Notes under the pieces: generated by a model
Database searches by the model: none
Told to the model about the DNA's origin: nothing
Seen by the model: only the letters and a program-made list of their open reading frames with translations
IMG/VR virus record: IMGVR_UViG_2681813318_000007
Coordinates: 1-14,644 of that record
From: a virus
Lineage: Duplodnaviria > Heunggongvirae > Uroviricota > Caudoviricetes
Reading direction: 5' to 3' (one strand)
DNA: 14,644 nucleotides
Position numbers and translations under genes: made by a program
Part shown: in pieces, positions 441-14,644 of the stretch
Position numbering within the stretch: the first letter of the stretch is position 1
Layout of the letters: the number at the start of each line of letters is the position of its first letter

Positions 441-469
441 ACTGATTCCTCGCGGTGCTGTTTCGCTTA

Positions 470-598: not shown

Positions 599-599
599 A

Positions 600-755
600 T
601 CACTCACCTGAGTTTCTTTTCAGCCAGCGACGGGCACCATTTTCGGTTTTAAACGTTTTGCTTTTGGTATACGTCATCGCGGTGAACGTACCGTCCTGGT
701 TGGGAAACACGCCGTACACCAGAGATTCGTTGTTGCCAAGATCGATAGTATCCAT
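600..755 (-). CDS. ydfA: YdfA-like (DUF1391-type) small prophage protein (51 aa)
   Basis: Internal ATG of the 600..836 ORF gives MDTIDLGNNESLVYGVFPNQDGTFTAMTYTKSKTFKTENGARRWLKRNSGE, with a GAGG Shine-Dalgarno about 7 nt upstream. Sequence and length match my recollection of Qin YdfA. Confidence 0.7.
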   Translation of the reverse strand: MDTIDLGNNESLVYGVFPNQDGTFTAMTYTKSKTFKTENGARRWLKRNSGE

Positions 756-940
756 GTTGACCTCATTTCCCCTTAACGCCGGGGTAGCGGAACAAAAACC
801 TGCTGCATAGTTATTAAAGTTGAACCCTGCCGTCATGTTCTTACGCCTCGGGCTGGCTACTTAACCCCTGACCACTGCCTGGTAACTCGAAGTATTGCCC
901 TGCATTCTGTGGGGTGGGGTGGGTTGGTATGAAAGGAAGG

Positions 941-980
941 ATACCCATGGGTATCCAAAAAGTAAATACCCATGGGTAAT
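941..980. promoter_or_regulatory. Two palindromic operator-like sites (ATACCCATGGGTAT at 941..954, TACCCATGGGTA at 967..978), candidate operator/promoter of the ydfA-like operon
   Basis: Perfect 14-bp palindrome and a second 12-bp copy 26 bp away, between the repressor gene stop and the ydfA-like start. On the minus strand they overlap a TTTACT-N17-TATCCT promoter-like spacing. The arrangement resembles the second DicA operator in front of the dicB operon. Confidence 0.45.
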
Positions 981-1020
981 TTTTTGATGTGTCTTAACTG
1001 GTGACTGGTTGTTTGGTGAG

Positions 1021-1440
1021 TTATGATGCGTTTTGTGCTTTCTTTTTACGGATTTCTTCGTAGATCATATTGTAATACTGTTTTTTCTCTTCAAGAGTTT
1101 TTAATAAGTTATCCGCTTCACTTTCTGGCAGTTCGTCTAAGAGATCTAAAAAAATACGTTGTCGTGGCGTTAGAACCCTTGTTTCATAATTGGAGGCTGT
1201 GTTCGTTGATGATGAAACGATACCATCCATCCATCCCCGGGGTAACCCAAAGGACTCTTCTATAATCTCCACCATATCATCAGCGATCCGTTTTTTTCCT
1301 TTTTTCCCCTCTGGGTACAACATTCTTGATACATAAGAAGGCTCGCGACCGATCTTTCTGGCCACGTTAACCGCTTTACCATCGCATTTCTCATCACGAA
1401 TTTTGATGAGTTGTTGTCGTCTAAATTCATATTTGTCCAT
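1021..1440 (-). CDS. Prophage immunity repressor, HTH protein with a DicA-family-like C-terminal region
   Basis: Translation from the ATG at 1440 is MDKYEFRRQQLIKIRDEKCDGKAVNVARKIGREPSYVSRML..., an HTH-like segment. The C-terminal stretch LTPRQRIFLDLLDELPESEADNLL resembles the DicA C-terminus. It is divergent from a Cro-like gene. The ORF-track start at 1482 is a TTG and less likely. Confidence 0.75.
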   Translation of the reverse strand: MDKYEFRRQQLIKIRDEKCDGKAVNVARKIGREPSYVSRMLYPEGKKGKKRIADDMVEIIEESFGLPRGWMDGIVSSSTNTASNYETRVLTPRQRIFLDLLDELPESEADNLLKTLEEKKQYYNMIYEEIRKKKAQNAS

Positions 1441-1487
1441 AGGTAAATAATAGATGCGATTACCGCAAGGTAAACAACCCAAGGGTA

Positions 1488-1516
1488 TTGACTTTTGTTT
1501 ACCTGTGGGTATTCTT
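1488..1516 (+). promoter_or_regulatory. Candidate rightward promoter for the Cro-like gene, with repressor half-sites
   Basis: TTGACT at 1488..1493, a 16-17 bp spacer, then TATTCT/ATTCTT at 1510..1516. GGGTAT half-sites at 1483..1488 and 1507..1512 match the arms of the 941..954 palindrome. Confidence 0.4.
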
Positions 1517-1540
1517 TGCTGTGTTTACTAAGGAGTAGCT

Positions 1541-1822
1541 ATGGAAGAATTAAGAATATTTCTCAATTCTCTTTCGTCAGATGAACAGCGTATGTTTGCA
1601 TGTGAGTGTGGTACTAGCATCGGTTATCTAAGAAAGGCATTGAGTAAAGGTCAAATGTTAGGGGCATCGTTATGTGTCCTTATTGAGCGAGCCAGTAATG
1701 GTGAAGTTACACGTCAGCAACTAAGGCCTTTTGATTGGATGAATATTTGGCCCGAGCTGGAAGATACCAAAACGTTAACACAACCACTTACTAGGAGCTT
1801 GATTCATGAAAATCAAGCATGA
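1541..1822 (+). CDS. Cro-like HTH protein of the YdaS family (93 aa)
   Basis: AAGGAG Shine-Dalgarno 7 nt upstream. The motif LIERASNGEVTRQQLRPFDW matches the conserved YdaS-family pattern. Divergent from the repressor. Confidence 0.8.
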   Translation: MEELRIFLNSLSSDEQRMFACECGTSIGYLRKALSKGQMLGASLCVLIERASNGEVTRQQLRPFDWMNIWPELEDTKTLTQPLTRSLIHENQA

Positions 1823-2231
1823 ACACATCCGCATGGCGATGAATGCCTGGGCGCGTCCTGATGGCGAAAAAGTTCCAGCAGCTGGAATAACCCAGGCTTA
1901 TTTTGAGTTGGGTATGACGTTTCCTGAACTGTATGACGACAGCCATCCGGAAGCCCTGGCTCGCAATACCCAGAAAATTTTCCGCTGGGTAGAGAAAGAC
2001 ACCCCTGATGCAGTTGAAAAAATTCAGGCGTTGTTACCAGCGATCGAAAAGGCAATGCCACCTTTGCTGGTGGCCAGAATGCGCAGCCACAGTTCAGCTT
2101 ATTTTCGGGAGTTGGTGGAGACGCGGGAGCGACTGGTGAGAGACGCTGATGATTTTGTCGCAGTGGCAATCGCCGGTTTCAATCAGATGAACCGTGGTGG
2201 CCCGGCAGGAAATGCTGTGGCAGTACATTGA
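1806..2231 (+). CDS. YdaT-like prophage regulatory protein (141 aa)
   Basis: Begins MKIKHEHI with an AGGAG Shine-Dalgarno; overlaps the upstream Cro-like gene by 17 nt. Position and N-terminus match the YdaS-YdaT pair of Rac-type prophages. Confidence 0.7.
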   Translation: MKIKHEHIRMAMNAWARPDGEKVPAAGITQAYFELGMTFPELYDDSHPEALARNTQKIFRWVEKDTPDAVEKIQALLPAIEKAMPPLLVARMRSHSSAYFRELVETRERLVRDADDFVAVAIAGFNQMNRGGPAGNAVAVH

Positions 2232-2302
2232 CTGACAATAGCCATATCGAATCGCTTCCGGCAATTCGTGAGTAAAAAGATTCGGTATCAGAAGAGGTGA
2301 GT

Positions 2303-3373
2303 ATGGCTAACGCCTGGCTCAGATTATGGCATGACATGCCAAATGACCCTAAGTGGCGAACAATTGCCAGGGTGTCAGGGCAGCCAATTGCAACAGTGAT
2401 GGCAGTGTATATCCACCTCCTGGTGAGCGCGTCACGAAATGTCACGCGAGGTCACATTGATGTCACGACAGAAGATTTGGCAAGTGCGCTCGACGTGACA
2501 GAAGAGGTAATTGATTCAATTTTGCAGACGATGCAGGGGCGGGTACTTGATGGTGATTTAATCACTGGATGGGAAAAACGCCAGGTGCTTAAAGAGGACA
2601 ACGGCAATATTTCGCAAACCGCAAAATCTCCGGCAGAGCGCAAGAGGGCGCAGCGTGAGAGGGAAAGAAAGCGGGAACAAAATGGCGATTGTCACGGCGC
2701 GTCACGAAATGTCACGCACATGTCACGACGAGTCACGACAGATAAAGATACAGATAGAGATACAGATAAAGAAGATCAAAACACTATGGTCCATGGCGTA
2801 AAAAACGCCACGAACCATGTAGGGGATGTTCAGACCGTCACTCCTGGCCAGCCCGCAGGCACGACACCGGAAGCCGATTCAGCGTATGCGCTGAAAGCCG
2901 ATTCGGGCGCTGTGCAGCAGGCGATGACCGCTGGGCCGGAGCAATCACACCAACTGCAGCAGCCTGAAGCCGATTCCGCCATTCAGCGGGAAGCCGATCG
3001 GGTAGTCCCGGAAAACACCGGGCAGCCTGTGGGACGAGTGGATTATCCGGATGTGTTCGAACAGGTCTGGCGGGAATACCCGTTACGAGCCGGGGCAAAC
3101 CCGAAGAAATCCGCTTTCAGTGCCTGGAAGGCCAGATTACGCGAGGGGGTGCCACCAGAGGCCATGCTGGATGGTGTAAGGCGTTACACAAGATACCTGG
3201 CTGCTACCGGGAAAACGGGAACGGAATTTGTTCAGCGAGCGACGACGTTTTTTGGACCGGACCGGAATTTTGAAAACCCCTGGTTGCTCCCGGTAAGCGG
3301 CACGAACAACCAGCGTTGTGTTAATCATATTTCTGAACCGGACACCGAAATTCCGCCGGGATTCAGAGGGTAA
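2303..3373 (+). CDS. Phage replication initiator / replisome-organizer-like protein with embedded origin iterons
   Basis: ATG at 2303 with an AGAGGTGA Shine-Dalgarno; the track start at 2297 is a GTG two codons upstream. Occupies the lambda O position after the immunity genes and contains two clusters of GTCACG direct repeats. No helicase-loader gene follows. Confidence 0.75.
   Translation: MANAWLRLWHDMPNDPKWRTIARVSGQPIATVMAVYIHLLVSASRNVTRGHIDVTTEDLASALDVTEEVIDSILQTMQGRVLDGDLITGWEKRQVLKEDNGNISQTAKSPAERKRAQRERERKREQNGDCHGASRNVTHMSRRVTTDKDTDRDTDKEDQNTMVHGVKNATNHVGDVQTVTPGQPAGTTPEADSAYALKADSGAVQQAMTAGPEQSHQLQQPEADSAIQREADRVVPENTGQPVGRVDYPDVFEQVWREYPLRAGANPKKSAFSAWKARLREGVPPEAMLDGVRRYTRYLAATGKTGTEFVQRATTFFGPDRNFENPWLLPVSGTNNQRCVNHISEPDTEIPPGFRG
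2431..2471. repeat. Iteron cluster 1: four direct repeats of about 10 bp with a GTCAC(G/A) core
   Basis: GTCACGAAAT, GTCACGCGAG, GTCACATTGAT, GTCACGACAG in tandem with one-helical-turn periodicity. Confidence 0.6.
2691..2790. repeat. Iteron cluster 2 (five GTCACG repeats) plus an AT-rich GATACAGATA repeat region, candidate phage replication origin
   Basis: GTCACGGCGC, GTCACGAAAT, GTCACGCACAT, GTCACGACGA, GTCACGACAG, then GATAAAGATACAGATAGAGATACAGATAAAGAAGATCAAAAC. Iterons followed by an AT-rich tract inside the initiator gene, as in lambda ori. Confidence 0.6.
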
Positions 3374-3410
3374 CAGATTTCAGGTCATGGGGTAATTTTC
3401 AGGAGGGCTT

Positions 3411-3686
3411 GTGGCAAAAGTTTTTACTCCCGAACTGCGGGAAGAAGTGAAGGCGCGCATTGTGGAACTGGTACGCAGAGATGGGCGAAAAACGCGTAAA
3501 CAACTGGAAAATGAAACCGGGGCGACGAGACACCTGATAGAAGTTCTGGTGAAAGAGCTGGTAGTTAGTGGCGCAGTATATGGTTCAGGACATGGAATAT
3601 TTCCTTCGGAGCAGGCTCGTAAGGACTGGGGAAAAGCCCGCAAAAAAAATGTCGAGAGCGGCAGTGAAAAAGAAGAGCGACCCTGA
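3411..3686 (+). CDS. Hypothetical small basic protein (91 aa), nin-region gene
   Basis: GTG start with an AGGAGG Shine-Dalgarno at 3401..3406; the lysine/arginine-rich helical sequence suggests nucleic-acid binding. Confidence 0.55.
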   Translation: MAKVFTPELREEVKARIVELVRRDGRKTRKQLENETGATRHLIEVLVKELVVSGAVYGSGHGIFPSEQARKDWGKARKKNVESGSEKEERP

Positions 3687-3819
3687 CCTGATTTATTCAT
3701 TGCTAGATGGCGAAATACGCCGTTACAACAGACGACAGAATATAATTTGTCGCGAGTGTCGTCAGAGCGAAGTTATGCAGCGCATACTGGAATTTTATCA
3801 GGGAAATGTTCGGTATTAA
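3649..3819 (+). CDS. Hypothetical small protein (56 aa) overlapping the 3' end of the preceding ORF in the +1 frame
   Basis: ATG at 3649 immediately after an A8 homopolymer (3642..3649); translation MSRAAVKKKSDPDLIYSLLDGEIRRYNRRQNIICRECRQ.... No clear Shine-Dalgarno, so it may be an independent gene, a frameshift product, or an artefact. Confidence 0.35.
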   Translation: MSRAAVKKKSDPDLIYSLLDGEIRRYNRRQNIICRECRQSEVMQRILEFYQGNVRY

Positions 3820-3963
3820 TTGAAGTGACGAAATTAAAGAGCATTAGTTCAGATATTAATTGACACTTCGATGGCACAGGCCCAGACCTAGTCTGGTTGT
3901 CAGCTTTGAGCTAGGTGAACGTTGGTATCGTTAGTTTGTATTAATCAACGGAGAATAGGCCAA

Positions 3964-3994
3964 ATGACTTTTCTTTGCCTCTTTTAATTATAAT
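3964..3994 (+). promoter_or_regulatory. Candidate promoter in the AT-rich spacer upstream of the large defense-like gene
   Basis: Perfect TATAAT at 3989..3994 with ATGACT/TGACTT 18-19 bp upstream; AT-rich region 3820..4062. Confidence 0.3.
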
Positions 3995-4062
3995 TCAAGT
4001 TCAATTGATTACATTGAAGTACTAATGTGAGTCCGTCAAACAAATAGCTCAAGGAATAGGTC

Positions 4063-6861
4063 ATGTGGGGAAGTGAAAACAAACAAAATCTGGACGTACT
4101 GGATCCTGTGCAGTTGGTGCGTATCGAAGCGGTACACCGGGGGTTCCTTTACCAGCATCTTTACGCTGTAGGCTGCTTACTTTTGGCGCAGAGGGCAGCT
4201 ATGGACTCAGTAACTGTCGAGCTTGATGAGGATATTGAGCTGAAATCCAAACAGGAACGTCTCTACATTCAGGTTAAAACCCGTTCAAAACCTATTATGC
4301 CCAACGATGTGTCGGGGGCTCTGGAGCGATTTGTAAAGCTCAGAAATGAGCATACTTCGGCAAACCGCGAAGGGGTGGCTTCTTTTGTGATTATTGTAAA
4401 CCAGGCGCCTGGACCGCTGCTTCAGAAGATGATTGACGATAAAAAGCTTCCTTCTGATGTTCTTATTGTCTGGCCCCAGTCGACAGCTGGACGTCACCCG
4501 GCACTTCCGCCCGCATGGAGTACTCTGGCTGATGCGGCCACATGGTGTATCGCAGAAGCAGAAAAGCTGAAATTTTCACTATTGTCCCCAGAATCCTTGA
4601 TTTGGAAGTTAGCAGGATTGGTTCAGCTTGCCGCCACCGGAGGCGATATCAATGGACAACATACGTTTTTCACGGAAGAACTTACTGAACTATTTGAACA
4701 GTTGATCGTTCAGCTACAGGACTTTCCTGCACCACCAGCACTGTACCGCCCACAGAACGAAGAACCTTCTCTCACATCTGGTGAGCGGATCCGTATCCTT
4801 TGTGGACTCTCAGGTGCAGGCAAGACAGCTTGGGCCGCACAGGCCGCATTACACTCCACTGCACTTTGTGCTTATTACGACACCGGTGATCTTCCCGGTC
4901 CAGCTCTGGCCAGTACGCTGGTGCGCGAGATGGCTGCTAGATTTACAGCCCGTGACCAAGACGGTTTGCGCAGGATTTTGCTCCCCGGTGCCAGTGGTTT
5001 TGAGGCTCTTAGGAGTTTTGATACCTACCTGAAAGAGCAGGGTACCACCTTGGTGCTGGTTCTGGATAACGCCCATCGTGTACCTGCGGAAAATCTACTG
5101 GATGTTCTGAATGCAACTACACATATTCGTTTTGTGCTGTTGTGCCAGCCTCACGAAAACGTTCGCGAACTGGAGGTCATGACGGGGCTACAGCGCGAGG
5201 GCCTGCAGGGATGGAATCTCGATACGGTAGCTGTCGTTGTAAACGATATCGGAGGATTTGCCACCGCTATGGGATACGAGCAGCTACGGGCTTACACTGG
5301 TGGTCTTCCCCTGTATGTAGAGAGCGCCGCAAAAATCGCCGTTTCTGATTATGAGCGTAATGTCGATGCTCTGTGTGCTGAACTCCAGCAACAAACCCAT
5401 ACTGCGGAAACCGCCCAAGAAATTATTCTGTCACGTGTATTTCAGGGATTTGAATCACTACTTCAGAGCGCGCTGGCATTGTTCAGTCTCTCTGACGTAG
5501 GGCTGAGTCGCGAAGAGATTTCTACGCTCCTAATCAATTCGCTGAACATTTCACCAAGCAGTGCTGCTTCTTTAATTAGGAAAATGCGCGCTACTGGCAC
5601 TATTGAAATTTATGGAAACCAGACCCTGAAGGTACATGATGCTGTCAGGGGGCTAGGACTGCAACATCTGGAACTGATGGATCAGGGTATATCGAACAAA
5701 GCGCTACTAGCGCTGAAAGACCTTTTAGTTGAAAGTCTTCATAATACCCGCAATACAAAACGGTTATCGTTGTTGACTCAACTTTATATTAAGCTCAATG
5801 ATGTCACGACGTTGATCGAACTCTCAGGCCAAGAAATGTTTTATGAGATGGGCGTGACGGTCGACATTCTTGCAAGCTTGGAGCGTGCTGCAACATCGGA
5901 CTTATTGGGACCTGTTCATAAATTCTGGGCATTGGATGGCCTTGTTTTCGTTGAGCTTAAAGACGGAATATCCGACCACATTGCTCAGAGGTTAAACATC
6001 ATGGGAGCTTTACTTGCGGAGCACAAGTTCGGCTATCAAGAAGAGATGGCCTATGCAATGAAACGAATGTTATTTTCGGCAGAAAGCAATGATGCACGAG
6101 AAGTTCAAAAGCTGGCACAGGAAGTCCGCCCCCAACTCCCAGATGAAGAACATAAACGCATCTTTGACTACAACCATGCCATTGCACTCTGGAGATTAAA
6201 AAAACTCAAGGATGCTGAAACATTAAGCTGTAATGTTATACAAGGGTACTATTCTTTATTTGGTATCACACCTGCTGATGTCATAGGAAAAAACGCCGAC
6301 GCATTATGGAAAACTATTAATCATTCCGAAAATATGCAGGAACACTTTAAACATATGGCTGATGCTCTGGAGTTGCTGGCCAGAATTCGTGATGCGCAGG
6401 GAAAACTGTCACCATTACTGCGTATTCATTCGATGAAGTTCTACAATCTGGCCATGGCCCCGGAATCCATGGTCAGGGTGGGCCAAGATCTGGCGGATGA
6501 GTTTGTTGCCATAAAGGATTACGACGGTGCCAAGGAAGTCATGGAGCAACATGTCCTGCCGGTTGTCAATGAGGCAGGTCTAGTACATCGACTGATTCAG
6601 GTTCGAAGCCAATACGCAGTCATATTAGCACTATCGGGTCAGCATAAAGCAGCTGATGTCGAAATGCAGCGCCTTGCTCCCTATATCGAAGGCCTCACAG
6701 GTGTACAGCGTCAAGAAATCCAAAATCAATCAAATTACATCGTACAGCTTGCCCATAAAGCAGCAAAGACTAAATTAACTGAAGTTTTTGGTGCGGTCGG
6801 CCGGAATGAACAATGCCCCTGTGGCTCGGGAATAAAGTACAAAAAATGTCACGGTGCCTGA
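4063..6861 (+). CDS. Large multidomain protein (932 aa): Cap4/DUF4297-like N-terminal nuclease, P-loop STAND/AAA_16-like NTPase, helical C-terminal region, terminal SEC-C zinc motif; candidate antiphage defense protein (Avs-like)
   Basis: Uninterrupted 2.8-kb ORF. N-terminus has GFLYQHLYAVG, VELDEDIEL and LYIQVK (a PD-(D/E)xK-like E/D...QxK pattern). Walker A GLSGAGKT at aa 248-255 (nt 4804..4827) and Walker B LVLVLDNAH at aa 330-338 (MalT-like hhhhDxxH). The last 15 residues are CPCGSGIKYKKCHGA (SEC-C). AT-rich flanks; lies in the nin region next to a hok locus. Confidence 0.85.
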   Translation: MWGSENKQNLDVLDPVQLVRIEAVHRGFLYQHLYAVGCLLLAQRAAMDSVTVELDEDIELKSKQERLYIQVKTRSKPIMPNDVSGALERFVKLRNEHTSANREGVASFVIIVNQAPGPLLQKMIDDKKLPSDVLIVWPQSTAGRHPALPPAWSTLADAATWCIAEAEKLKFSLLSPESLIWKLAGLVQLAATGGDINGQHTFFTEELTELFEQLIVQLQDFPAPPALYRPQNEEPSLTSGERIRILCGLSGAGKTAWAAQAALHSTALCAYYDTGDLPGPALASTLVREMAARFTARDQDGLRRILLPGASGFEALRSFDTYLKEQGTTLVLVLDNAHRVPAENLLDVLNATTHIRFVLLCQPHENVRELEVMTGLQREGLQGWNLDTVAVVVNDIGGFATAMGYEQLRAYTGGLPLYVESAAKIAVSDYERNVDALCAELQQQTHTAETAQEIILSRVFQGFESLLQSALALFSLSDVGLSREEISTLLINSLNISPSSAASLIRKMRATGTIEIYGNQTLKVHDAVRGLGLQHLELMDQGISNKALLALKDLLVESLHNTRNTKRLSLLTQLYIKLNDVTTLIELSGQEMFYEMGVTVDILASLERAATSDLLGPVHKFWALDGLVFVELKDGISDHIAQRLNIMGALLAEHKFGYQEEMAYAMKRMLFSAESNDAREVQKLAQEVRPQLPDEEHKRIFDYNHAIALWRLKKLKDAETLSCNVIQGYYSLFGITPADVIGKNADALWKTINHSENMQEHFKHMADALELLARIRDAQGKLSPLLRIHSMKFYNLAMAPESMVRVGQDLADEFVAIKDYDGAKEVMEQHVLPVVNEAGLVHRLIQVRSQYAVILALSGQHKAADVEMQRLAPYIEGLTGVQRQEIQNQSNYIVQLAHKAAKTKLTEVFGAVGRNEQCPCGSGIKYKKCHGA

Positions 6862-6934
6862 GTCTTTGTACGACCATGCGGGCCTTATTGTCTTGCTATT
6901 GCTCTTATGGTTCGCCTTTCTGATTGATTTCATA

Positions 6935-6963
6935 TTGGCGAGGTGACGGGAGTTAAGTAGAAT
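6935..6963 (+). promoter_or_regulatory. Candidate hok/mok mRNA promoter
   Basis: TTGGCG at 6935..6940, 17-bp spacer, TAGAAT at 6958..6963. The predicted transcription start near 6969-6970 coincides with the 5' fold-back element. Confidence 0.45.
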
Positions 6964-6967
6964 GGCT

Positions 6968-6981
6968 GCGGGTGCTTGAGG
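6968..6981 (+). promoter_or_regulatory. 5' fold-back-inhibition element of the hok mRNA (pairs with 7344..7358)
   Basis: GCGGGTGCTTGAGG is complementary, with one bulge, to CCTCAATGCACCCGC at 7344..7358 just upstream of the terminator, the 5'-3' pairing typical of hok mRNAs. Confidence 0.55.
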
Positions 6982-7081
6982 CTATCTGTCTCAGGCATGA
7001 ACACCAAAGGCAGATAGAGAAAAGCCCCAGTTAACATTACGCGTCCTGCAAGACGCTTAACATTAATCTGAGGCTCAATCT

Positions 7082-7294
7082 ATGAACGGCAAATCTAGGT
7101 TAGCCTCTTACGTGCCGAAAGGCAAGGAGAAGCAGGCTATGAAGCAGCAAAAGGCGATGTTAATCGTCCTGATCGTCATCTGTTTAACCGTCATAGTGAC
7201 GGCACTGGTAACGAGGAAAGACCTCTGCGAGGTACGAATCCGAACCGGCCAGACGGAGGTCGCTGTCTTCACAGCTTACGAACCTGAGGAGTAA
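7082..7294 (+). CDS. mok: Mok-like reading frame (70 aa) extending hok upstream in the same frame
   Basis: ATG at 7082 in frame with hok; the extension MNGKSRLASYVPKGKEKQA precedes the Hok sequence, as I recall for chromosomal mokC. Confidence 0.45.
   Translation: MNGKSRLASYVPKGKEKQAMKQQKAMLIVLIVICLTVIVTALVTRKDLCEVRIRTGQTEVAVFTAYEPEE
7139..7294 (+). CDS. hok: Hok/Gef-family type I toxin (51 aa membrane peptide)
   Basis: MKQQKAMLIVLIVICLTVIVTALVTRKDLCEVRIRTGQTEVAVFTAYEPEE is near-identical in pattern to HokC/Gef (MKQHKAMIVALIVICITAVVAALVTRKDLCEVHIRTGQTEVAVFTAYESE). Confidence 0.9.
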   Translation: MKQQKAMLIVLIVICLTVIVTALVTRKDLCEVRIRTGQTEVAVFTAYEPEE

Positions 7295-7362
7295 GAGACC
7301 AGGCGGGGGAGAAATCCCTCGCCACCTCTGATGTGTCAGGCATCCTCAATGCACCCGCACTT

Positions 7363-7389
7363 AACCCGCTTCGGCGGGTTTTGTTTTTT
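7363..7389 (+). terminator. Rho-independent terminator of the hok mRNA
   Basis: AACCCGC-TTCG-GCGGGTT stem-loop followed by TTTTGTTTTTT. Confidence 0.8.
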
Positions 7390-7461
7390 CCTGGCATTCT
7401 GGTTTACAATTCGCACGCCAGCCTGAACAACTGGCACCTGCTGCGCCAGCAGAGACAACCG

Positions 7462-7740
7462 ATGGCGCACGATACCAAATTACACAATTCTAATGATTCT
7501 GCTGTCTTTGCCAGCAGGTGCGGACGGCGTTTTCACGCATTCACATCAGACTGGTTCCAGCATCCTCCATGCACTGAAGAGCAGGCTGAATGGATAATTC
7601 AGTGTTACCGCAGGCGTGGATACGAGGTTAAGAAAGCTCTTAGTCTCGACTATCGTCACTGGATAATCTCAGTCAGACTCCCTTACTCCGAACGCCCACC
7701 GCGTCCGTCCCGCACATTCCAGCAACGCATCTGGAGGTAA
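7462..7740 (+). CDS. Hypothetical prophage protein (92 aa)
   Basis: Internal ATG at 7462 downstream of the hok terminator; the track start at 7333 would run through the terminator. Stop is 1 nt before the next gene. Translation MAHDTKLHNSNDSAVFASRCGRRFHAFTSDWFQHPPCTEEQAEW...; weak Shine-Dalgarno. Confidence 0.5.
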   Translation: MAHDTKLHNSNDSAVFASRCGRRFHAFTSDWFQHPPCTEEQAEWIIQCYRRRGYEVKKALSLDYRHWIISVRLPYSERPPRPSRTFQQRIWR

Positions 7741-7741
7741 C

Positions 7742-8791
7742 GTGCGGGTATTACTTCGACCTGTTCTGGTACCGGAACTCGGGCTGGTGATCGTTAAGCC
7801 GGGCCGTGAATCCATGCCGGTATTCCACAATACCCGGGTACTGGTGGAGCCGGAACCGAAAAGCATGCGTAATCTGCCGTCCGGGGTCGTTCCTGCCGTT
7901 CGCCAGCCGCTGGTGGAAGACAAAACATTGCTGCCGTTTTTCAGTAACGCACGGGTGATTCGTGCTGCTGGTGGTGCTGGTGCATTGTCTGACTGGCTGT
8001 TGCGCCATATTAAATCCTGCCAGTGGCCACACGGCGATTATCATCACAGCGAAACCGTCATTCACCGTTATGGTACCGGCGCAATGGTGTTGTGCTGGCA
8101 CTGCGACAACCAGTTGCGTGACCAGACCTCCGAATCACTCGGGCAACTTGCTCATCAAAACCTGTCAGCATGGATGATTGACGTCATCGGTCACGCAATA
8201 AGCGGTACGCAGGAGCGTGAATTATCTCTGGCTGAATTATCCTGGTGGGCGGTCCGCAATCAGCTGGCGGACGCGCTACCGGAAGCGGTATTACGTCGCT
8301 CGCTGGGATTACCAGCGGAAAAAATCTGCTCGGTGTACCGCGAAAGCGACATCGTACCGGGAGAGCAGACCGCCACCAGCATATTGAAACAGCGCACAAA
8401 AAATCTTGCACCGTTGCCTCACGCCCACCAGCAACAAAACCCATCACAGGAAAAGACGGTGGTAAGCATTGCCGTTGATCCTGAGTCTCCGGAATCTTTC
8501 ATGAAACGACCTAAACGTCGCCGCTGGGTTAACGAGAAATACACTCGCTGGGTGAAGACACAGCCGTGTGCGTGTTGTGGTAAGCCAGCCGACGATCCCC
8601 ATCACCTGATTGGTCATGGTCAGGGCGGAATGGGGACAAAATCTCACGATATTTTCACGCTACCGCTGTGTCGGGAGCATCACAACGAGCTTCATGCGGA
8701 TCCGCTGGCGTTCGAAGAAAAGCATGGTTCTCAGGTTGATTTAATTTTTCGTTTTCTTGATCACGCCTTTGCAACTGGCGTGCTTGGGTAA
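7742..8791 (+). CDS. ydfU: DUF968-family prophage protein (YdfU-like, 349 aa) with a C-terminal Cys/His metal-binding motif
   Basis: GTG start with a GGAGG Shine-Dalgarno. N-terminus MRVLLRPVLVPELGLVIVKPGRES and C-terminal CACCGKPADDPHHLIGHG...LCREHHNELH match my recollection of Qin YdfU; it sits immediately upstream of rusA. Confidence 0.75.
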   Translation: MRVLLRPVLVPELGLVIVKPGRESMPVFHNTRVLVEPEPKSMRNLPSGVVPAVRQPLVEDKTLLPFFSNARVIRAAGGAGALSDWLLRHIKSCQWPHGDYHHSETVIHRYGTGAMVLCWHCDNQLRDQTSESLGQLAHQNLSAWMIDVIGHAISGTQERELSLAELSWWAVRNQLADALPEAVLRRSLGLPAEKICSVYRESDIVPGEQTATSILKQRTKNLAPLPHAHQQQNPSQEKTVVSIAVDPESPESFMKRPKRRRWVNEKYTRWVKTQPCACCGKPADDPHHLIGHGQGGMGTKSHDIFTLPLCREHHNELHADPLAFEEKHGSQVDLIFRFLDHAFATGVLG

Positions 8792-8803
8792 AAGAGGTGA
8801 CTG

Positions 8804-9178
8804 ATGCTCATAGATTTGGTTTTACCTTACCCGCCGACGGTGAACACTTACTGGCGACGCCGTGGCAGCACATATTTTATCTCGGAGGAGGGAAAGCGTT
8901 ATCGCCGGGCTGTGGCGCTTATTGTTCGCCAGCAGCGGCTGAAATTAAGCCTGTCCGGAAGGCTGGCGATAAAGGTGATTGCAGAGCCACCGGATAAGCG
9001 TCGTCGCGACCTGGACAATATCCTGAAAGCACCGCTGGATGCGCTGACGCATGCGGGAGTGTTAATGGACGATGAGCAGTTTGATGAAATCAATATCGTT
9101 CGTGGTCAGCCAGTATCTGGTGGACGTCTGGGGGTGAAGATTTACCCCATAATGCATGAAGAGCAGGTCAAAAAATGA
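8804..9178 (+). CDS. rusA: RusA-family Holliday junction resolvase
   Basis: AGAGGTGA Shine-Dalgarno; the motif PPDKRRRDLDNILKAPLDALTHAGVLMDDEQ matches RusA (PDRRRRDLDN...DALT...DD). Typical position upstream of Q. Confidence 0.9.
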   Translation: MLIDLVLPYPPTVNTYWRRRGSTYFISEEGKRYRRAVALIVRQQRLKLSLSGRLAIKVIAEPPDKRRRDLDNILKAPLDALTHAGVLMDDEQFDEINIVRGQPVSGGRLGVKIYPIMHEEQVKK

Positions 9179-9996
9179 AACTGGAAGATTTACCGAAATA
9201 CTACTCCCCAAAATCCCCTTGCCTGACCGATGCATCGGCCTCAACGTCAAAAGATGCGCTGAGTATCACTGATGTGATGGCCGCGCAGGGCATGACACAG
9301 AATCGGGCTGAGATGGGGTTTTCTGCGTTCCTGGGGAAAATGGGCATCAGTATGAATGACAGGGCGCGGGCAACAGAATTACTGGCAGATTATGCACTCA
9401 GTCGGTGCGATCGTGTGGCGGCGTTGAGAAAACTTCCGGCAGAAATAAAACCGGTAGTGATGCGCATTATGGCTTCGTACGCTTTTGAGGATTATGCCCG
9501 CAGCGCAGCGAGTAAAAAGCAGTGCCCCTGTTGCTATGGGGAAAAATTTATTGAAAGCGTAGTTTTTACAAACAAGGTCCAGTATCCGGATGGTAAGCCG
9601 CCGGTATGGGCAAAGTGTACGAAAGGTGTGTATCCGTCTTACTGGGAAGAATGGAAAAAAGTCAGGGAGGTGGTAAAAGTTGCCTGTCCGGAGTGTGGCG
9701 GAAAGGGTGAGGTTTCCACCGCCTGTAAGGATTGCCGTGGGCGTGGTGTCGCCATTCACCGTGAAGAGTCGGTAAAACGTGGTATGCCTGTTATCAGAGA
9801 CTGCCAGCGTTGTGGTGGTCGTGGCTATGAAAGACTACCATCAACGGAGGCATTTAATGCTATATGTGAGGTGACAAACCAGATAACACGCGCGTCATGG
9901 GAAAAAACAGTTAAGAAATTCTATGATGCGCTGGTGACCCGGTTTGATATTGAAGAAGCATGGGCTGAGCGGCAGTTAAAAAAGGTAACTAGGTAA
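9175..9996 (+). CDS. Late-gene antitermination protein Q (QuuQ/YdfT-like, 273 aa, multiple CxxC zinc motifs)
   Basis: ATGA start/stop overlap with rusA. Begins MKLEDLPKYYSPKSP and carries CPCC, CPECGG, CKDCRG and CQRCGG motifs. Followed by a promoter, terminator and tRNAs, as downstream of Q in Stx-type phages. Confidence 0.8.
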   Translation: MKLEDLPKYYSPKSPCLTDASASTSKDALSITDVMAAQGMTQNRAEMGFSAFLGKMGISMNDRARATELLADYALSRCDRVAALRKLPAEIKPVVMRIMASYAFEDYARSAASKKQCPCCYGEKFIESVVFTNKVQYPDGKPPVWAKCTKGVYPSYWEEWKKVREVVKVACPECGGKGEVSTACKDCRGRGVAIHREESVKRGMPVIRDCQRCGGRGYERLPSTEAFNAICEVTNQITRASWEKTVKKFYDALVTRFDIEEAWAERQLKKVTR

Positions 9997-10001
9997 CAAG
10001 G

Positions 10002-10029
10002 TTGATTTTTCCGGAATCTGTGGTAAATT
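10002..10029 (+). promoter_or_regulatory. Candidate late promoter PR' (Q-utilisation region)
   Basis: TTGATT at 10002..10007, 16-bp spacer, TAAATT at 10024..10029, directly downstream of Q. Confidence 0.45.
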
Positions 10030-10077
10030 CGTCATAACGATGGGCTTTTTATGCCTGACGTTAGAAGAGTTTCTACA

Positions 10078-10100
10078 ACCCGCCGCCGAGCGGGTTTTTT
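10078..10100 (+). terminator. Rho-independent terminator (tR'-like) downstream of the late promoter
   Basis: ACCCGC-CGCCGA-GCGGGT stem-loop followed by TTTTTT. Confidence 0.7.
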
Positions 10101-10139
10101 ATTGCGGAATTAATTACGGACCGTTATTATTCTGCTCAC

Positions 10140-10215
10140 GGCCCTTTAGCTCAGTGGTGAGAGCGAGCGACTCATAATCGCCAGGTCGCTGGTTCAAATC
10201 CAGCAAGGGCCACCA
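10140..10215 (+). tRNA. tRNA with CAU anticodon (Ile2/Met type, ileZ-like)
   Basis: 76-nt cloverleaf: acceptor GGCCCTT/AAGGGCC, D-arm GCTCAGTGGTGAGAGC, anticodon loop CTCATAA, T-arm GGTTCAAATCC, encoded CCA. Confidence 0.9.
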
Positions 10216-10315
10216 TCACAAACCGCCATTAGCTTATCAGGAAGAGCAGACGACGCGATAACAGGGTTGTTGGTGCGGGGGCGGGTCCCCGATGGCGGTC
10301 CATTATCGGTATTCA

Positions 10316-10392
10316 GCGTTGTTAGCTCAGCCGGACAGAGCAATTGCCTTCTAAGCAATCGGTCACTGGTTCGAATCCAGTACAGCGCGCCA
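10316..10392 (+). tRNA. tRNA-Arg (UCU anticodon, argO/argN-like)
   Basis: 77-nt cloverleaf: acceptor GCGTTGT/ACAGCGC, D-arm GCTCAGCCGGACAGAGC, anticodon stem-loop ATTGC-CTTCTAA-GCAAT, T-arm GGTTCGAATCC, encoded CCA. Confidence 0.9.
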
Positions 10393-10529
10393 TATTCATT
10401 CTTCCAGATTCCTTCCGGCAGAGCCTTATACTGAAATATACCTGGCTCAGGATCTTGTTGAAAATATTATATGTTTGTCAAAAATAAAAGTTCTGTTAAG
10501 TATTGATTGAGTGTTTGTTATACCGTCTA

Positions 10530-10856
10530 ATGGTTTTTTCAGCATTAAATATTTATCATTCATATGGTGTGGGTAGAGTGAATATTGATGAGGCGTCGGG
10601 GTGTTTCATCCTTAGGCAGCGTATTGATATAGTCAATGCAGCACGAGCAAAGGCCTTCAGCCGTTTGACAGTTTTGTTTTGTACTCCTGATCGTCTTTCG
10701 GGAAGAGACGTTATTATTCTGAATAGTGATGCTATACAGAGGGTTTGCGATGAGTTCATGGTTGCTAATTCAGAATTATTTGCTCTTGTTCAGGAGTACA
10801 ACAGAATAGCCAGGACCTGTGGTATGGATGAACTTCGGATTACTCATCTGGGGTAG
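10530..10856 (+). CDS. Hypothetical protein (108 aa) in the AT-rich insertion downstream of the tRNAs
   Basis: Only sizeable ORF in the AT-rich region after the tRNAs; no convincing Shine-Dalgarno and no recognisable family, so coding status is uncertain. Confidence 0.3.
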   Translation: MVFSALNIYHSYGVGRVNIDEASGCFILRQRIDIVNAARAKAFSRLTVLFCTPDRLSGRDVIILNSDAIQRVCDEFMVANSELFALVQEYNRIARTCGMDELRITHLG

Positions 10857-11330
10857 ATACATATCTGGATTATCACCTGTTACGGTAAAAAGTTATTGCT
10901 TACTGTTTTTGTGAATGGCATTGCAGCAGCCGGATAATGTCAGTGCTGGCTGACGGTGTGCTGGTGGCGGGTGTGGTGGTTATTGCTTTCCCGTTGCTGA
11001 AAAAGAAAACGCCAGACTGTTAGCCGGGTATCAGTTAGCGGGAGAAATTTTTAAATACTTCACAATTCAGGCGGTTGACTGTTGTCTGGTTTGCGGGGAG
11101 TTTGTTAAAAGAAACTGGCATGGTGAATCCCCCTGTGCGGAGGGGCAATCAGCGAGTAGGTATATGGGATAATCGCGGATTCAGGTGCTGGTACTGAATT
11201 CACCGGGAGGCACCCGGCACCATGCACTTCAATAGATTCTCTCCACATTATGGATATTCTTTCAGAATATCCCACGCAGACTTTGTGTAAATGTTAACAA
11301 ATGTGCGTTTTATTTGATCTGATTCGCTGT

Positions 11331-11360
11331 TTGAGCGTCCAAAACAACGGTATATATAAT
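11331..11360 (+). promoter_or_regulatory. Candidate promoter for the first TolA-domain lipoprotein gene
   Basis: TTGAGC at 11331..11336, 18-bp spacer, perfect TATAAT at 11355..11360, followed by a GAGGA Shine-Dalgarno and the ATG at 11390. Confidence 0.5.
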
Positions 11361-11389
11361 CCTTTACTATATGACATATGTGAGGAAAA

Positions 11390-11818
11390 ATGGGTTTTCG
11401 TAGCGCATCAATTCTTACGTTGATTATTAGTGGGATTATTATCGGGTGCACTGATGCTGTATCGACAAATTATCATGACCGTACATCATATTACTCCGAT
11501 AAAGCAATAGAGACACAGTATGTGAGTTCATCTGAACGTACTTCTGATGTTAGTGAGGATATCCGTCTGTATGCCCATCAAATCAAGAGCGCTATCGAAA
11601 AACAGTTCGGGGATGCGAGTAAGTATTCAGGAAAAGAGTGTACACTGAGAATGCATATGGCCCCGAATGGCCTTCTACTGGAGGTTAAAAGAGAAAGTGG
11701 AGACCTCGATTTATGTCGTGAAGCGATGAATGCGATAAAGAATGCTGATATACCTGCCCCCCCTTCGCCGGAAGTATATAAAGTATTTCAAAATGGGGTG
11801 CTGGATTTTAAACCCTGA
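11390..11818 (+). CDS. Lipoprotein with a TolA C-terminal (domain III)-like domain (142 aa)
   Basis: Signal peptide with lipobox IIGC (MGFRSASILTLIISGIIIGC). C-terminal YAHQIKSAIEKQFGDASKYSGKECTLRMHMAPNGLLLEVK...PEVYKVFQNGVLDFKP closely parallels the E. coli TolA C-terminus (YAGQIKSAIESKFYDASSYAGKTCTLRIKLAPDGMLLDIK...YEVFKNAPLDFKP). Confidence 0.85.
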   Translation: MGFRSASILTLIISGIIIGCTDAVSTNYHDRTSYYSDKAIETQYVSSSERTSDVSEDIRLYAHQIKSAIEKQFGDASKYSGKECTLRMHMAPNGLLLEVKRESGDLDLCREAMNAIKNADIPAPPSPEVYKVFQNGVLDFKP

Positions 11819-11968
11819 TATTTATTGTTTTGTAATAAACGGTTTCGGCTTAGGTTTGTTCTGACACAACTACGGCACTGAGCTAAATTTAGCGGATAGT
11901 CAGCTCTGAGCCAGTGGCGGACGTAACAACTACTATTGCTGAGATTTTAATGGATTGAGGAGCAAGAA

Positions 11969-12364
11969 GTGGGATTAAAGAAAATCGTTATGTTGACTTT
12001 TTGGGTCGGTTTTGTTGCGGGATGCACACCTTTACACCCTTCAGATTGCCACAAAACTACTGCTACAGGTAGTTGCAGTTCAGGACGCTGGGATGATCAG
12101 GATGAATGGGGGGCGCAAGCGCGGGGAATCAGAGCTGCAATTAATGCCAAACTTGATGAGCCGCATAACTGGAAAGGGAAAAAATGCAGGTTGCATATGG
12201 AATTCTCTCAGGATGGCACGGCGTTAAAAATATCTACCAGTAACGGTGATAAAGCCTATTGCGAAGCGATAAAGTCCGCAGCTCATAAAGCCAAATTTCC
12301 GGCCTTCAACAATCCGGAAGTCTACAGAGATTTTCAGAAATCTGGCTTTGACATGCGAGGTTAG
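11969..12364 (+). CDS. Second, more divergent lipoprotein with a TolA C-terminal-like domain (131 aa)
   Basis: GTG start with a GAGGAG Shine-Dalgarno; signal peptide with lipobox VAGC. GIRAAINAKL...KGKKCRLHMEFSQDGTALKIS...PEVYRDFQKSGFDMRG aligns with the first copy and with TolA domain III. Confidence 0.8.
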   Translation: MGLKKIVMLTFWVGFVAGCTPLHPSDCHKTTATGSCSSGRWDDQDEWGAQARGIRAAINAKLDEPHNWKGKKCRLHMEFSQDGTALKISTSNGDKAYCEAIKSAAHKAKFPAFNNPEVYRDFQKSGFDMRG

Positions 12365-12489
12365 CTCTTCAATTACTATATCTCATTCATAGCAAACTGA
12401 CAGATTTGATGATGTTCTATATACGAAACCTGTGATGTCAAGTCTGAGCTAATACAAATAAACATAATATCAGAGAAATACATTTTATT

Positions 12490-12511
12490 AGCTCGCTACG
12501 GCGAGCTTTTT
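12490..12511 (+). terminator. Rho-independent terminator after the lipoprotein pair
   Basis: AGCTCGC-TACG-GCGAGCT stem-loop followed by TTTTTAT. Confidence 0.7.
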
Positions 12512-12615
12512 ATATTGCATCGTCTCCAGCATATATATCAATTAAGGCTCTGATTGATGTGTCTGGAAGCCTACACATAATAACTATGCCATCCGTTCCG
12601 TGCGGAGGTGAGGCT

Positions 12616-12831
12616 ATGAAATCCATGGACAAAATTTCAACAGGCATTGCCTACGGCACCTCCGCAGGCAGTGCTGGCTACTGGTTTTTACAGCTGCTCG
12701 ATAAAGTCACGCCCTCACAGTGGGCAGCAATAGGTGTGCTGGGTAGCCTGGTATTTGGCCTGCTGACGTACCTGACAAACCTTTATTTCAAGATTAAAGA
12801 AGACAAGCGTAAGGCTGCACGGGGAGAGTAA
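12616..12831 (+). CDS. Phage-21-type class II holin/pinholin with dual start (MKSM antiholin start at 12616, MDK holin start at 12625)
   Basis: [71 protein letters not shown] matches S21 pinholin; GGAGGTGAGG Shine-Dalgarno. The upstream extension in the ORF track is unlikely to be translated. Confidence 0.9.
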
Positions 12832-12835
12832 TTCA

Positions 12836-13180
12836 ATGACTCAAAAATATGAACTGATTGTGAAAGGGATCCGCAATTTTGAGAATAAAGTTACGGTAAC
12901 TTTAGCGTTACGGGACAAAGAACGCTTTGACGGTGAAATTTTTGACCTGGACATCTCGCTGGACCGTGTTGAAGGTGCCGCGCTGGAGTTTTATGAGGCA
13001 GCAGCCAGAAGGAGCATCAGACAGGTCTTCCTGGATGTTGCTGCCGGGTTATGTGAAGGGGATGAGCTGTCGCCGGAAAAGCGCCCCATAATTTTAGAGG
13101 CGCAGAATGTGTGGATAACCTACAAAGGAAAGCTACCGGGAAGAATTACTGGTTCTCTGAAGACTCCGCTGAAATGGTAA
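12836..13180 (+). CDS. YdfR-like (DUF1327-type) small protein inserted between holin and endolysin (114 aa)
   Basis: ATG 5 nt after the holin stop with a GGAGAG Shine-Dalgarno. N-terminus MTQKYELIVKGIRNFENKVTVTLALRDKERFDGEIFDLD matches my recollection of Qin YdfR, which sits between essQ and rrrQ. Confidence 0.65.
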   Translation: MTQKYELIVKGIRNFENKVTVTLALRDKERFDGEIFDLDISLDRVEGAALEFYEAAARRSIRQVFLDVAAGLCEGDELSPEKRPIILEAQNVWITYKGKLPGRITGSLKTPLKW

Positions 13181-13418
13181 TTTCACCAGCATATTTTTCT
13201 TCCAGTAATACCGCCAGCCACTTGAAAGAATTTTGTTGTTGCTGGGACCATTTGGGGTTGAGTGATTCAAGCTGGAGCGATGCCAGTGTTGGTTGCATTT
13301 GTTCCTTGGGAATTGAGAATGCCAGATATGAAAATGCGACAGTAAGGGCATTTACATCATCCCGAAGCTTGGAAATGCAGTCGAGCAACTCCTGTAGAGA
13401 AATGGTGCTATTGTCCAT
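13146..13418 (-). CDS. Hypothetical small helical protein (90 aa), antisense within the lysis cassette
   Basis: ATG at 13418 preceded by a GAGAGGA Shine-Dalgarno and a TTGAAT-N17-19-TACAAT promoter-like sequence on the minus strand. Its 3' end overlaps the YdfR-like gene convergently by 35 nt. The overlapping plus-strand ORF 13111..13443 looks non-coding. Confidence 0.45.
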   Translation of the reverse strand: MDNSTISLQELLDCISKLRDDVNALTVAFSYLAFSIPKEQMQPTLASLQLESLNPKWSQQQQNSFKWLAVLLEEKYAGEITISAESSENQ

Positions 13419-13523
13419 AAACAATCCTCTCTATTGTATTTAACTATTCCTTGCCTGATTCAACAGGCCGGGACAGATAAACATATCCAGGGTTCAGAAA
13501 CCGATAAACCCTGATAAATATCC

Positions 13524-14066
13524 ATGAACGTAAAAATCAGATACGGCCTGTCGGCTGCCGTTCTGGCACTGATTGCCGTCGGTGCGCCTGCGCCTGATAT
13601 TCTCGACCAGTTTCTGAATGAAAAAGAAGGTAACCACACAACGGCATACCGCGATGGTTCCGGCATCTGGACCATCTGTCGGGGTGCCACGGTGGTGGAT
13701 GGAAAACCCGTTTTTCCCGGTATGAAACTGTCGAAGGAAAAATGCGACCAGATTAACGCCATTGAACGGGATAAGGCGCTGGCATGGGTGGAGCGCAATA
13801 TTAAAGTGCCACTGACCGAACCACAGAAAGCGGGTATAGCGTCATTTTGTCCCTATAACATTGGCCCCGGTAAGTGTTTCCCGTCGACGTTTTATAAGCG
13901 GCTGAATGCCGATGATCGTAAGGGGGCATGCGAGGCGATTCGCTGGTGGATAAAAGATGGTGGGCGTGATTGCCGCCTGACAAAAGGGCAGAAGAATGGC
14001 TGTTATGGGCAGGTCGAGCGGCGCGATCAGGAAAGCGCACTGGCGTGCTGGGGGCTGGAGCAATGA
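13524..14066 (+). CDS. SAR endolysin (T4-lysozyme-like muramidase with N-terminal signal-anchor-release domain)
   Basis: N-terminal SAR-like segment YGLSAAVLALIAVGAPAP; catalytic E...D...T spacing in EGNHTTAYRDGSGIWTICRGAT; C-terminal ...ACWGLEQ. Follows the pinholin. Confidence 0.9.
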   Translation: MNVKIRYGLSAAVLALIAVGAPAPDILDQFLNEKEGNHTTAYRDGSGIWTICRGATVVDGKPVFPGMKLSKEKCDQINAIERDKALAWVERNIKVPLTEPQKAGIASFCPYNIGPGKCFPSTFYKRLNADDRKGACEAIRWWIKDGGRDCRLTKGQKNGCYGQVERRDQESALACWGLEQ

Positions 14067-14569
14067 AAATTAATCCGGATCTTATAGGCGTTGTCGTTAT
14101 TGCTGGCCTTTCGGTCGCTCTCGTCAAGAGTTGCTCTCACGCCAGTAATCTTCAGAGCGATAACGACGTTCTGCGAAGTGACAACTCTATGCTGGGGCAG
14201 GTAATCGCCACCCAGGCATTCAACTTCAATCGATTCAATCAGGTTGCAGAACATGCCAACAGTCTTAACTCCCTGATCGACACCAGCACCGAAAAAACCG
14301 TAATCGAATACCGGGAGATTCTCCGCCGTGAAAAAACCTGTGATCTGCCTGTTCCTGCTGATATCGCTGGTGGGTTGCTCGAATACACGTACCGTTTACG
14401 TGCCAGCGCCATGCACACCGATACCGGCAGACCTAATGAAGCCTATGATCGTACCGCTACCACCAGCTCAATGACCTACTGCCAAGCTGTCTTGTGGATT
14501 AAGCCGCTACTGGCGTTGATAGAAAAAGGAAATAATAATTTTTCGAGTATTCGTAACCGGCTCATTTAA
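14063..14569 (+). CDS. Rz: Rz i-spanin
   Basis: ATGA overlap with the endolysin stop. N-terminal transmembrane segment MKINPDLIGVVVIAGLSVALV followed by a helical periplasmic domain. The track start at 13970 is an upstream extension. Confidence 0.85.
   Translation: MKINPDLIGVVVIAGLSVALVKSCSHASNLQSDNDVLRSDNSMLGQVIATQAFNFNRFNQVAEHANSLNSLIDTSTEKTVIEYREILRREKTCDLPVPADIAGGLLEYTYRLRASAMHTDTGRPNEAYDRTATTSSMTYCQAVLWIKPLLALIEKGNNNFSSIRNRLI
14328..14474 (+). CDS. Rz1: Rz1 o-spanin lipoprotein embedded in the +1 frame of Rz
   Basis: GTG start with a GGGAGA Shine-Dalgarno. Translation MKKPVICLFLLISLVGCSNTRTVYVPAPCTPIPADLMKPMIVPLPPAQ has lipobox LVGC and is proline-rich; it lies entirely within Rz. Confidence 0.75.
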   Translation: MKKPVICLFLLISLVGCSNTRTVYVPAPCTPIPADLMKPMIVPLPPAQ

Positions 14570-14644
14570 ACCGTCTGGTCTGTTTCCTCCGGCTCTACAA
14601 AAATAATGTCCATCATTTTTAATGGACACTATCGTATGAAACAC

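Follow-up and report, generated by a model that had tools for sequence, protein, structure and literature searches.

The DNA considered here is IMG/VR virus record IMGVR_UViG_2681813318_000007, a sequence of the class Caudoviricetes whose positions 1 to 14,644, the whole stretch that was analysed, are called the window in the following. It carries a lysis cassette in which the holin gene and the lysozyme gene are kept apart by a gene of the YdfR family and by a small open reading frame (ORF) on the opposite strand, which we call ORF90 after the 90 amino acids (aa) that it encodes and which is the subject of this text. ORF90 is already annotated in RefSeq/PGAP, as the hypothetical protein WP_000370545.1; it is here found to be genuine, widespread and in possession of chromosomal relatives, and it is ordinary in kind. 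The features at the locus are as follows.

12616 to 12831, plus strand: class II (S21-type) pinholin gene, 71 aa; Pfam PF04971, E 1.8e-35; named EssD by PGAP
12836 to 13180, plus strand: gene of the YdfR family (DUF1327), 114 aa; Pfam PF07041, E 1.8e-42; full-length match to phrog_406; "YdfR family protein" in PGAP
13146 to 13418, minus strand: ORF90, 90 aa, phrog_2411; predicted cytoplasmic three-helix bundle, residues 80-90 encoded within ydfR
13425 to 13431, minus strand: Shine-Dalgarno sequence GAGAGGA, 6 nucleotides (nt) before the ATG of ORF90; its AGGA core is present in all E. coli copies
13177 to 13458 (aligned with locus L007) or about 13173 to 13478 (aligned with locus L008): segment missing from insert-free prophages; limits approximate
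13524 to 14066, plus strand: lysozyme gene with a predicted N-terminal segment of the signal-anchor-release (SAR) type; Pfam PF00959 and relatives in the PDB

A first-pass annotation, made from the letters of the window, had described a gap of about 690 base pairs (bp) between holin and endolysin, a YdfR-like gene within that gap and, on the minus strand, the 90-aa frame with its GAGAGGA and its 35-nt overlap with ydfR. All of this proved correct: the distance from the holin stop at 12831 to the lysozyme start at 13524 is 692 nt, the gene in between matches DUF1327, and the convergent overlap of ORF90 and ydfR covers 13146-13180. A lambdoid prophage of Escherichia coli GPEC657 (locus L001) is 99.9% identical to the stretch 12500-14100 of the window; it has the Qin-type genes dicB, dicA, dicC, hokD and rem together with a Q-like antiterminator, and PGAP gives its gene order as EssD holin, YdfR family protein, minus-strand hypothetical protein (WP_000370545.1), lysozyme and Rz-like protein.

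ORF90 and the insertion that carries it

ORF90 starts with ATG, and an alternative TTG two codons upstream would give a product of 92 aa. The protein aligns over its whole length with the phrog_2411 profile (residues 1-90 on positions 1-90 of 90, E 2.2e-59), which its distant relatives match as well. The frame is open in every diverged E. coli copy examined, up to a difference of about 17% in DNA, and most alleles are intact, the large clusters being full-length. Among five sequences, in the part outside ydfR, the variable sites fall on codon positions 1, 2 and 3 as 7, 9 and 24; among seven sequences the distribution is 14, 13 and 28 (chi-square p = 0.02). Pairwise ratios of nonsynonymous to synonymous substitution (dN/dS) lie mostly at 0.15-0.5, and at 0.15-0.37 in the more diverged pairs. 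Conservation of the frame across related prophages, which the first-pass annotation had named as one point to check, is thus seen both in the open, diverged copies and in relatives from other genera, and these comparisons between copies show ORF90 to be a genuine gene.

A second frame, on the plus strand at 13174-13443 (13111-13443 if read from a GTG), was considered as the true gene and rejected. Its ATG overlaps the stop of ydfR (ATGGTAA) and its dN/dS of 0.16 is even below that of ORF90, but it mimics purifying selection because it has its wobble positions in common with ORF90. It has stops or no ATG in four diverged copies (L002, L003, L004 and L013) and must for that reason be regarded as a shadow of ORF90; its product would be a Cys/Ser-rich protein of low complexity.

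The gene sits on extra DNA. In the Qin prophage of K-12, ydfR overlaps the lysozyme gene rrrQ by 4 nt, and in prophages of the O145 and N10 types the gap between ydfR and lysozyme is only 50-63 bp; the separation of pinholin and endolysin that the first-pass annotation took for an insertion is thereby confirmed, the segment being missing from all three. The insert, found in some Qin/Rac-like lambdoid prophages of E. coli, is about 280-305 bp long. On the left it joins ydfR within the final codons of that gene, and ORF90 accordingly takes its own last seven or so codons from conserved sequence of ydfR. Of 5426 complete E. coli genomes, about 1053, or about a fifth, have the full segment, and most prophages that share this holin-ydfR-lysozyme cassette are without it. 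Among the carriers are laboratory strains of E. coli B, with an intact copy in Rac, and two deposited phage genomes, Chlobot and phiSTEC1575-Stx2k, likewise have the gene intact. In the latter the lysozyme gene has been swapped for a different lysis set, and holin, ydfR and ORF90 have been retained together.

In other prophages the same slot between ydfR and lysozyme is filled by another cassette with the same convergent arrangement, in which YdfR is extended to 183 aa and faces a minus-strand frame of 86 aa, ORF86 (phrog_2572). ORF86 differs from ORF90 in that it has no detectable similarity to it, and homology of the two was rejected (no BLASTP match; hhalign probability 0.3%). This alternative cassette was seen in E. 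coli at L009 1237-2110 and L011 1237-2089, and the extended YdfR of about 183 aa belongs to phrog_2091 and is annotated as a pseudogene in both.

Relatives and the region upstream

ORF90 belongs to a small family of the Enterobacterales. Relatives were sought with a profile among 1.8 billion representative proteins, and then once more with the alignment that this first round had widened. They came, with identities of 30-63%, from Citrobacter, Serratia, Chania, Chimaeribacter, Gibbsiella, Sodalis and Acerihabitans, those of Serratia, Chania, Chimaeribacter and Sodalis being 30-40% identical to ORF90. They have the family motif ELL..I......L.V...AF.YL.F in common, and the C-terminal tail is variable. 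One query, P0096, had no match in viral contigs.

The copies of Serratia marcescens, Chania and Chimaeribacter are chromosomal, the gene (X) standing there in the order pyrC-dinI-X-bssS-solA. The product is like ORF90 in length (89-93 aa), sequence (29-40% identity), motif and helical pattern; the gene differs in that it lies outside any prophage, is co-directional with its neighbours, follows the terminator of dinI, and is without the upstream motif that the phage-borne copies share. Sodalis and one further metagenomic lineage have relatives in other chromosomal settings. The loci with a chromosomal homologue are L015 4631-5282 (Serratia), L020 and L021 3556-4270, and L022 3626-4279. In the Serratia locus a LexA box is plainly present at dinI, as is a terminator; upstream of ORF90 and of the Serratia homologue no LexA box was seen by eye, no formal scan for one having been made.

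The phage-borne relatives are scattered. Apart from the site in the window, a Citrobacter prophage has one upstream of its holin gene, another prophage has one beside the terminase region, and two IMG/VR contigs have one past the tape-measure gene, where it separates two minor tail genes. Whichever of these four sites it occupies, the gene is opposite in direction to the late genes, and in three of the four it overlaps or converges upon a small ORF. Taken together with the alignments of insert-free prophages, these settings show that ORF90 is an insertion, that it is mobile, and that in phages it is always placed backwards.

As to the protein itself, AlphaFold2 gave the same three-helix bundle from a shallow and from a deep alignment, with a mean predicted local distance difference test score (pLDDT) of 78 and 81, and with helices at residues 8-35, 38-52 and 59-77. 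No signal peptide was found, and the bundle is predicted to be soluble. Residues 80-90 have a pLDDT below 50 and are predicted to be disordered, and they are exactly those encoded in the overlap with ydfR, which argues that the overlap is a read-out into the neighbouring gene and not a designed feature. The first-pass annotation did not recognise the protein, and this still stands, since homology and structure searches yielded no function. Neither ORF90 nor eight of its distant relatives had a family in Pfam, NCBIfam or PADLOC at E values up to 5, fold and profile searches gave no matching solved structure or viral model, and no literature was found under the accession, the database identifiers or the name. 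We picture a small, soluble, helical protein that would act through protein binding.

The region upstream of ORF90, and the DNA downstream of it, contain the following elements.

13433 to 13463, minus strand: promoter-like hexamers of the first-pass annotation, TTGAAT (13463-13458) and TACAAT (13438-13433) with a 19-nt spacer
13439 to 13481: imperfect palindrome or stem-loop with the conserved core GCCTG-N6-CAGGC (13468-13453), the "-35" hexamer lying in its loop
13482 to 13492, minus strand: motif CCCTGGATATG, common to the upstream DNA of distant phage-borne relatives and found once in the window
13487 to 13514: hairpin in the lysozyme leader (CAGGGTT ... AACCCTG), present also in prophages without ORF90
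13077 to 13103, minus strand: weak terminator-like hairpin inside ydfR, 43 nt past the ORF90 stop, with a 7-bp stem, a 9-nt loop and UUUU; not called by the scan

Although they occupy unrelated sites, the phage-borne relatives share the upstream sequence TATCAGG ... CCCTGG[AT]TATG. At loci L016, L026, L029 and L030 this motif is followed, at the same relative place, by a stem-loop with a 6-nt loop whose stem sequence is different. The position of motif and stem-loop, common to unrelated sites, suggests that a control region moves with the gene. From the same arrangement, transcription of ORF90 may begin upstream of the stem-loop. In the insert-free prophages, part of the DNA upstream of ORF90 is the leader of the lysozyme gene.

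Motif and stem-loop are found at 13439-13492 of the window (minus strand), at about 4900-4960 of L016, at about 3880-3950 of L026, and upstream of the gene in L029 and L030. The stems of L029 and L030 differ, though the two loci encode proteins that match one query at 92-95% identity; covariation was not formally tested. A standard scan for promoters and terminators gave on the minus strand solely the lysozyme-leader hairpin, which is upstream of ORF90. This hairpin is kept with and without the insert, and also in the Stx2k phage despite the replaced lysozyme gene.

ORF90 as a candidate accessory gene

Inserts in phage operons that are expressed independently of their surroundings are known as morons, and have typically a promoter and a terminator of their own and a deviant content of guanine plus cytosine (G+C) (PMC3594210, PMC2629481). 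We think it probable, if by no means certain, that ORF90 is a protein-coding accessory gene of the moron type, independently transcribed and acting as a protein. It is extra DNA between genes that are adjacent in related phages, as the comparison with K-12 Qin, L007 and L008 makes plain, and it has spread horizontally, with four late-region sites in different phages and copies in chromosomes. The first-pass annotation had suggested that ORF90 could be a gene expressed in lysogeny, and a lysogeny-expressed accessory gene is the reading that fits best with the presence/absence polymorphism and with the scattered sites, transcription in the lysogen being the part that we infer.

The late transcript runs along the plus strand and cannot express a minus-strand gene, and ORF90 therefore needs transcription of its own. 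The cassette would bring this with it in the form of its upstream control region, and ORF90 would then be transcribed independently of the Q-dependent late transcription, most likely in the lysogen or early after infection. The function of ORF90 would lie with the protein and not with the RNA, the protein probably binding a partner from host or phage. Convergent late transcription would in that case be a by-product, one that would silence ORF90 during lytic growth. Phages probably captured the gene from a Serratia-type host and then spread it by recombination into several sites of their late operons. Less likely, though conceivable, is that the family represents an unrecognised small regulator, located next to the SOS-regulated gene dinI in Serratia, Chania and Chimaeribacter and repeatedly captured by phages.

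There are several results that weigh against a moron-type accessory gene. The G+C content of the insert, 0.42, differs mildly from that of ydfR (0.47), the holin gene (0.50) and the lysozyme gene (0.54). The first-pass annotation had credited ORF90 with a promoter of its own, and while the hexamers are there, a promoter could not be confirmed. The -10 hexamer is kept in six of seven copies and ends one base before the Shine-Dalgarno sequence, so that a start about 7 nt past it (at about 13426) would leave a leader of about 8 nt and lose most of the Shine-Dalgarno sequence; the -35 hexamer is not conserved (it reads TTGCCT in L002 and L003), and the spacer of 19 nt is outside the 16-18 nt that the consensus promoter scan allows. 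That scan found no promoter on the minus strand and, over the region as a whole, a single site, where shuffled sequences would be expected to give 2.4. Downstream of ORF90 there is no convincing terminator beyond the weak hairpin with four U. In close pairs dN/dS is 0.5-0.85, frameshifted alleles of 94 aa have arisen at several independent positions, and an in-frame deletion in L002 removes the invariant residue E51. Since such frameshifts and such a deletion exist, selection on ORF90 is relaxed in some cryptic prophages.

One could go further and see in ORF90 a decaying, non-functional remnant in cryptic prophages, annotated merely as an open frame. The frameshifted alleles, the copies that are truncated or deleted (L006, L010 and L002), the values of dN/dS near 0.8 in some close pairs and the lack of any promoter that passes the scan would all be expected of a remnant, but the great majority of the alleles are intact, including those of the phages Chlobot and phiSTEC1575-Stx2k, the diverged pairs are under purifying selection, the family extends to 30% identity with conserved motifs, and the fold is predicted with confidence. 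We consider this explanation very unlikely. Another explanation takes ORF90 for a partner of YdfR, perhaps an inhibitor or chaperone, that would check a possible action of YdfR on RNase E or RNA outside lytic growth, the two genes forming one convergent module inserted in the lysis cassette. For the YdfR of K-12, binding to the N-terminal catalytic half of RNase E and co-purification of RNA are reported (PMC13232886, 2026). In the loci examined, the E. coli ORF90 is found only beside ydfR and stays with holin and ydfR upon exchange of the lysozyme gene, and the alternative cassette of the slot likewise pairs its extended YdfR with a convergent small ORF. Against such a partnership, ydfR is without ORF90 in most prophages, K-12 Qin included, and relatives of ORF90 are without a DUF1327 neighbour in Citrobacter, in the tail regions of the IMG/VR contigs and in the Serratia-type chromosomes; the idea is to us an improbable one.

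The first-pass annotation had also raised antisense control of lysis timing. Spelled out, an antisense RNA started at about 13426-13470 would run into ydfR and the pinholin gene, and would delay lysis or block superinfecting phages with the same cassette. ORF90 does run against ydfR and does overlap it by 35 nt, there is no strong terminator on the minus strand before ydfR and the holin gene, and in three of four phage contexts a small ORF is overlapped by the gene or lies convergent to it. There is a precedent as well: STnc6030 of the Salmonella prophage BTP1 is a prophage transcript antisense to late genes, expressed in the lysogen, that excludes self-like phage (PMC7067206). STnc6030 is however classed as non-coding, with no ORF above 60 aa, and acts by base-pairing, whereas at the present locus the ORF is the conserved feature and is under purifying selection; a non-coding transcript without a conserved ORF is not what is found here. 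The codon-position pattern, the reading frame and the residues conserved down to 30% identity are signs of selection on the protein. Its relatives lie opposite quite different genes, or in chromosomes, near dinI, without any opposing late transcript, and because they occupy such varied sites, a role tied to one lysis transcript is hard to reconcile with them. Most prophages with the same cassette have no insert, the plus-strand RNA of the insert is not notably structured (z = -0.7), and the insert has no Rfam match. Control of lysis timing by antisense RNA, as the first-pass annotation had raised it, is thus unsupported, and we hold it to be unlikely. A mixed form, to which we give the same small chance, is that the ORF90 transcript is bifunctional, encoding the protein and at the same time running on, in the lysogen, as antisense to ydfR and to the pinholin gene. 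Phages with the same cassette, whether superinfecting or induced spontaneously, would then have their late lysis transcript destabilised, which would amount to exclusion or lysis delay in the manner of STnc6030.

Gene bor of phage lambda adjoins Rz, and its direction of transcription is opposite to that of the late operon. Like the moron-type gene that we propose ORF90 to be, bor is an accessory gene in a late region beside the lysis genes. Together with lom it is a classic accessory gene of that region, and both are expressed from the repressed prophage (PMC7067206, PMC3594210). Such expression is established for bor and lom, whereas for ORF90 we infer it. Bor differs from ORF90 in being an exported lipoprotein of the outer membrane, ORF90 being predicted soluble, and there is no relationship between the two in sequence or fold. 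The product of HK97 gene 15, gp15, is associated with the membrane; for ORF90 no such association is predicted. In the sense of Juhala and Hendrix gene 15 is the founding moron, and it is like ORF90 in being horizontally spread extra DNA between late genes that adjoin each other in related phages (PMC3594210); it differs in that promoter, terminator and G+C deviation are weak or unproven for ORF90, and in that gp15 belongs to the tail operon. The "ant moron" (immunity I) of P22 is likewise a variable and independently regulated insert in the late operon, with a possible incidental effect on read-through to the late gene that follows (PMC2629481). It contains repressors, an antirepressor and the sar RNA, to which there is no counterpart at the ORF90 locus.

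If ORF90 is indeed such an accessory gene, it is one more of those that prophages carry, and it is found in about a fifth of the complete E. coli genomes. The family is not an orphan of E. coli, and the chromosomal relatives next to dinI offer a second system in which its function could be sought. Its backwards placement, together with an upstream element that appears to travel with it, makes it a small and clean case in which to test how morons are shielded from late transcription and how they interact with it. The understanding of lysis would be unchanged, unless the antisense reading proves true.

The lysis genes and other features of the window

The pinholin has the N-terminus MKSM in translation, which is the dual-start pattern of S21. 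The YdfR-like protein scores 143.9 bits with PF07041, the gathering cut-off of Pfam being 25. The relatives of the lysozyme in the PDB are 3hde, 3hdf and 4zpu (RrrD), with E at about 1e-14, and its N-terminus, MNVKIRYGLSAAVLALIAVGAPAP, is rich in Gly and Ala and weakly hydrophobic. The cassette thereby has, as judged from its predicted proteins, the make-up of a pinholin and SAR-endolysin cassette of the phage 21 type, with release of the endolysin from the membrane as a prediction. A search for ydfR together with holin and prophage found no literature. A late-expressed binder of RNase E within a lysis cassette, as YdfR would be, may merit attention by itself.

Just upstream of the pinholin gene are two tandem genes for proteins with a TolA C-terminal domain (PF06519), at 11390-11818 and 11990-12364 on the plus strand. 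Their N-termini resemble lipoprotein signals (…IIGC and …VAGC), and it is a guess of ours that the proteins could block Tol-dependent entry. Further to the left, at 4063-6861 on the plus strand, an ORF of 932 aa combines an N-terminus like that of a Cap4 nuclease (PF14130; PADLOC LmuA, E 5e-7) with an AAA_22 ATPase domain and, at the C-terminus, a SEC-C motif. Situated in an accessory spot of the early right region, it is a candidate gene for anti-phage defence; the GPEC657 prophage, nearly identical otherwise, has at the same place a DUF262 protein instead (PADLOC NsnA, E 9e-28). Above the gathering score of Rfam, and all on the plus strand, are a match to the sok family at 6970-7144 in a hok/sok region, two transfer RNAs at 10140-10212 and 10316-10389, downstream of the gene for the Q-like antiterminator, and the small RNA STnc100 at 11089-11279, between the transfer RNAs and the TolA-like genes.

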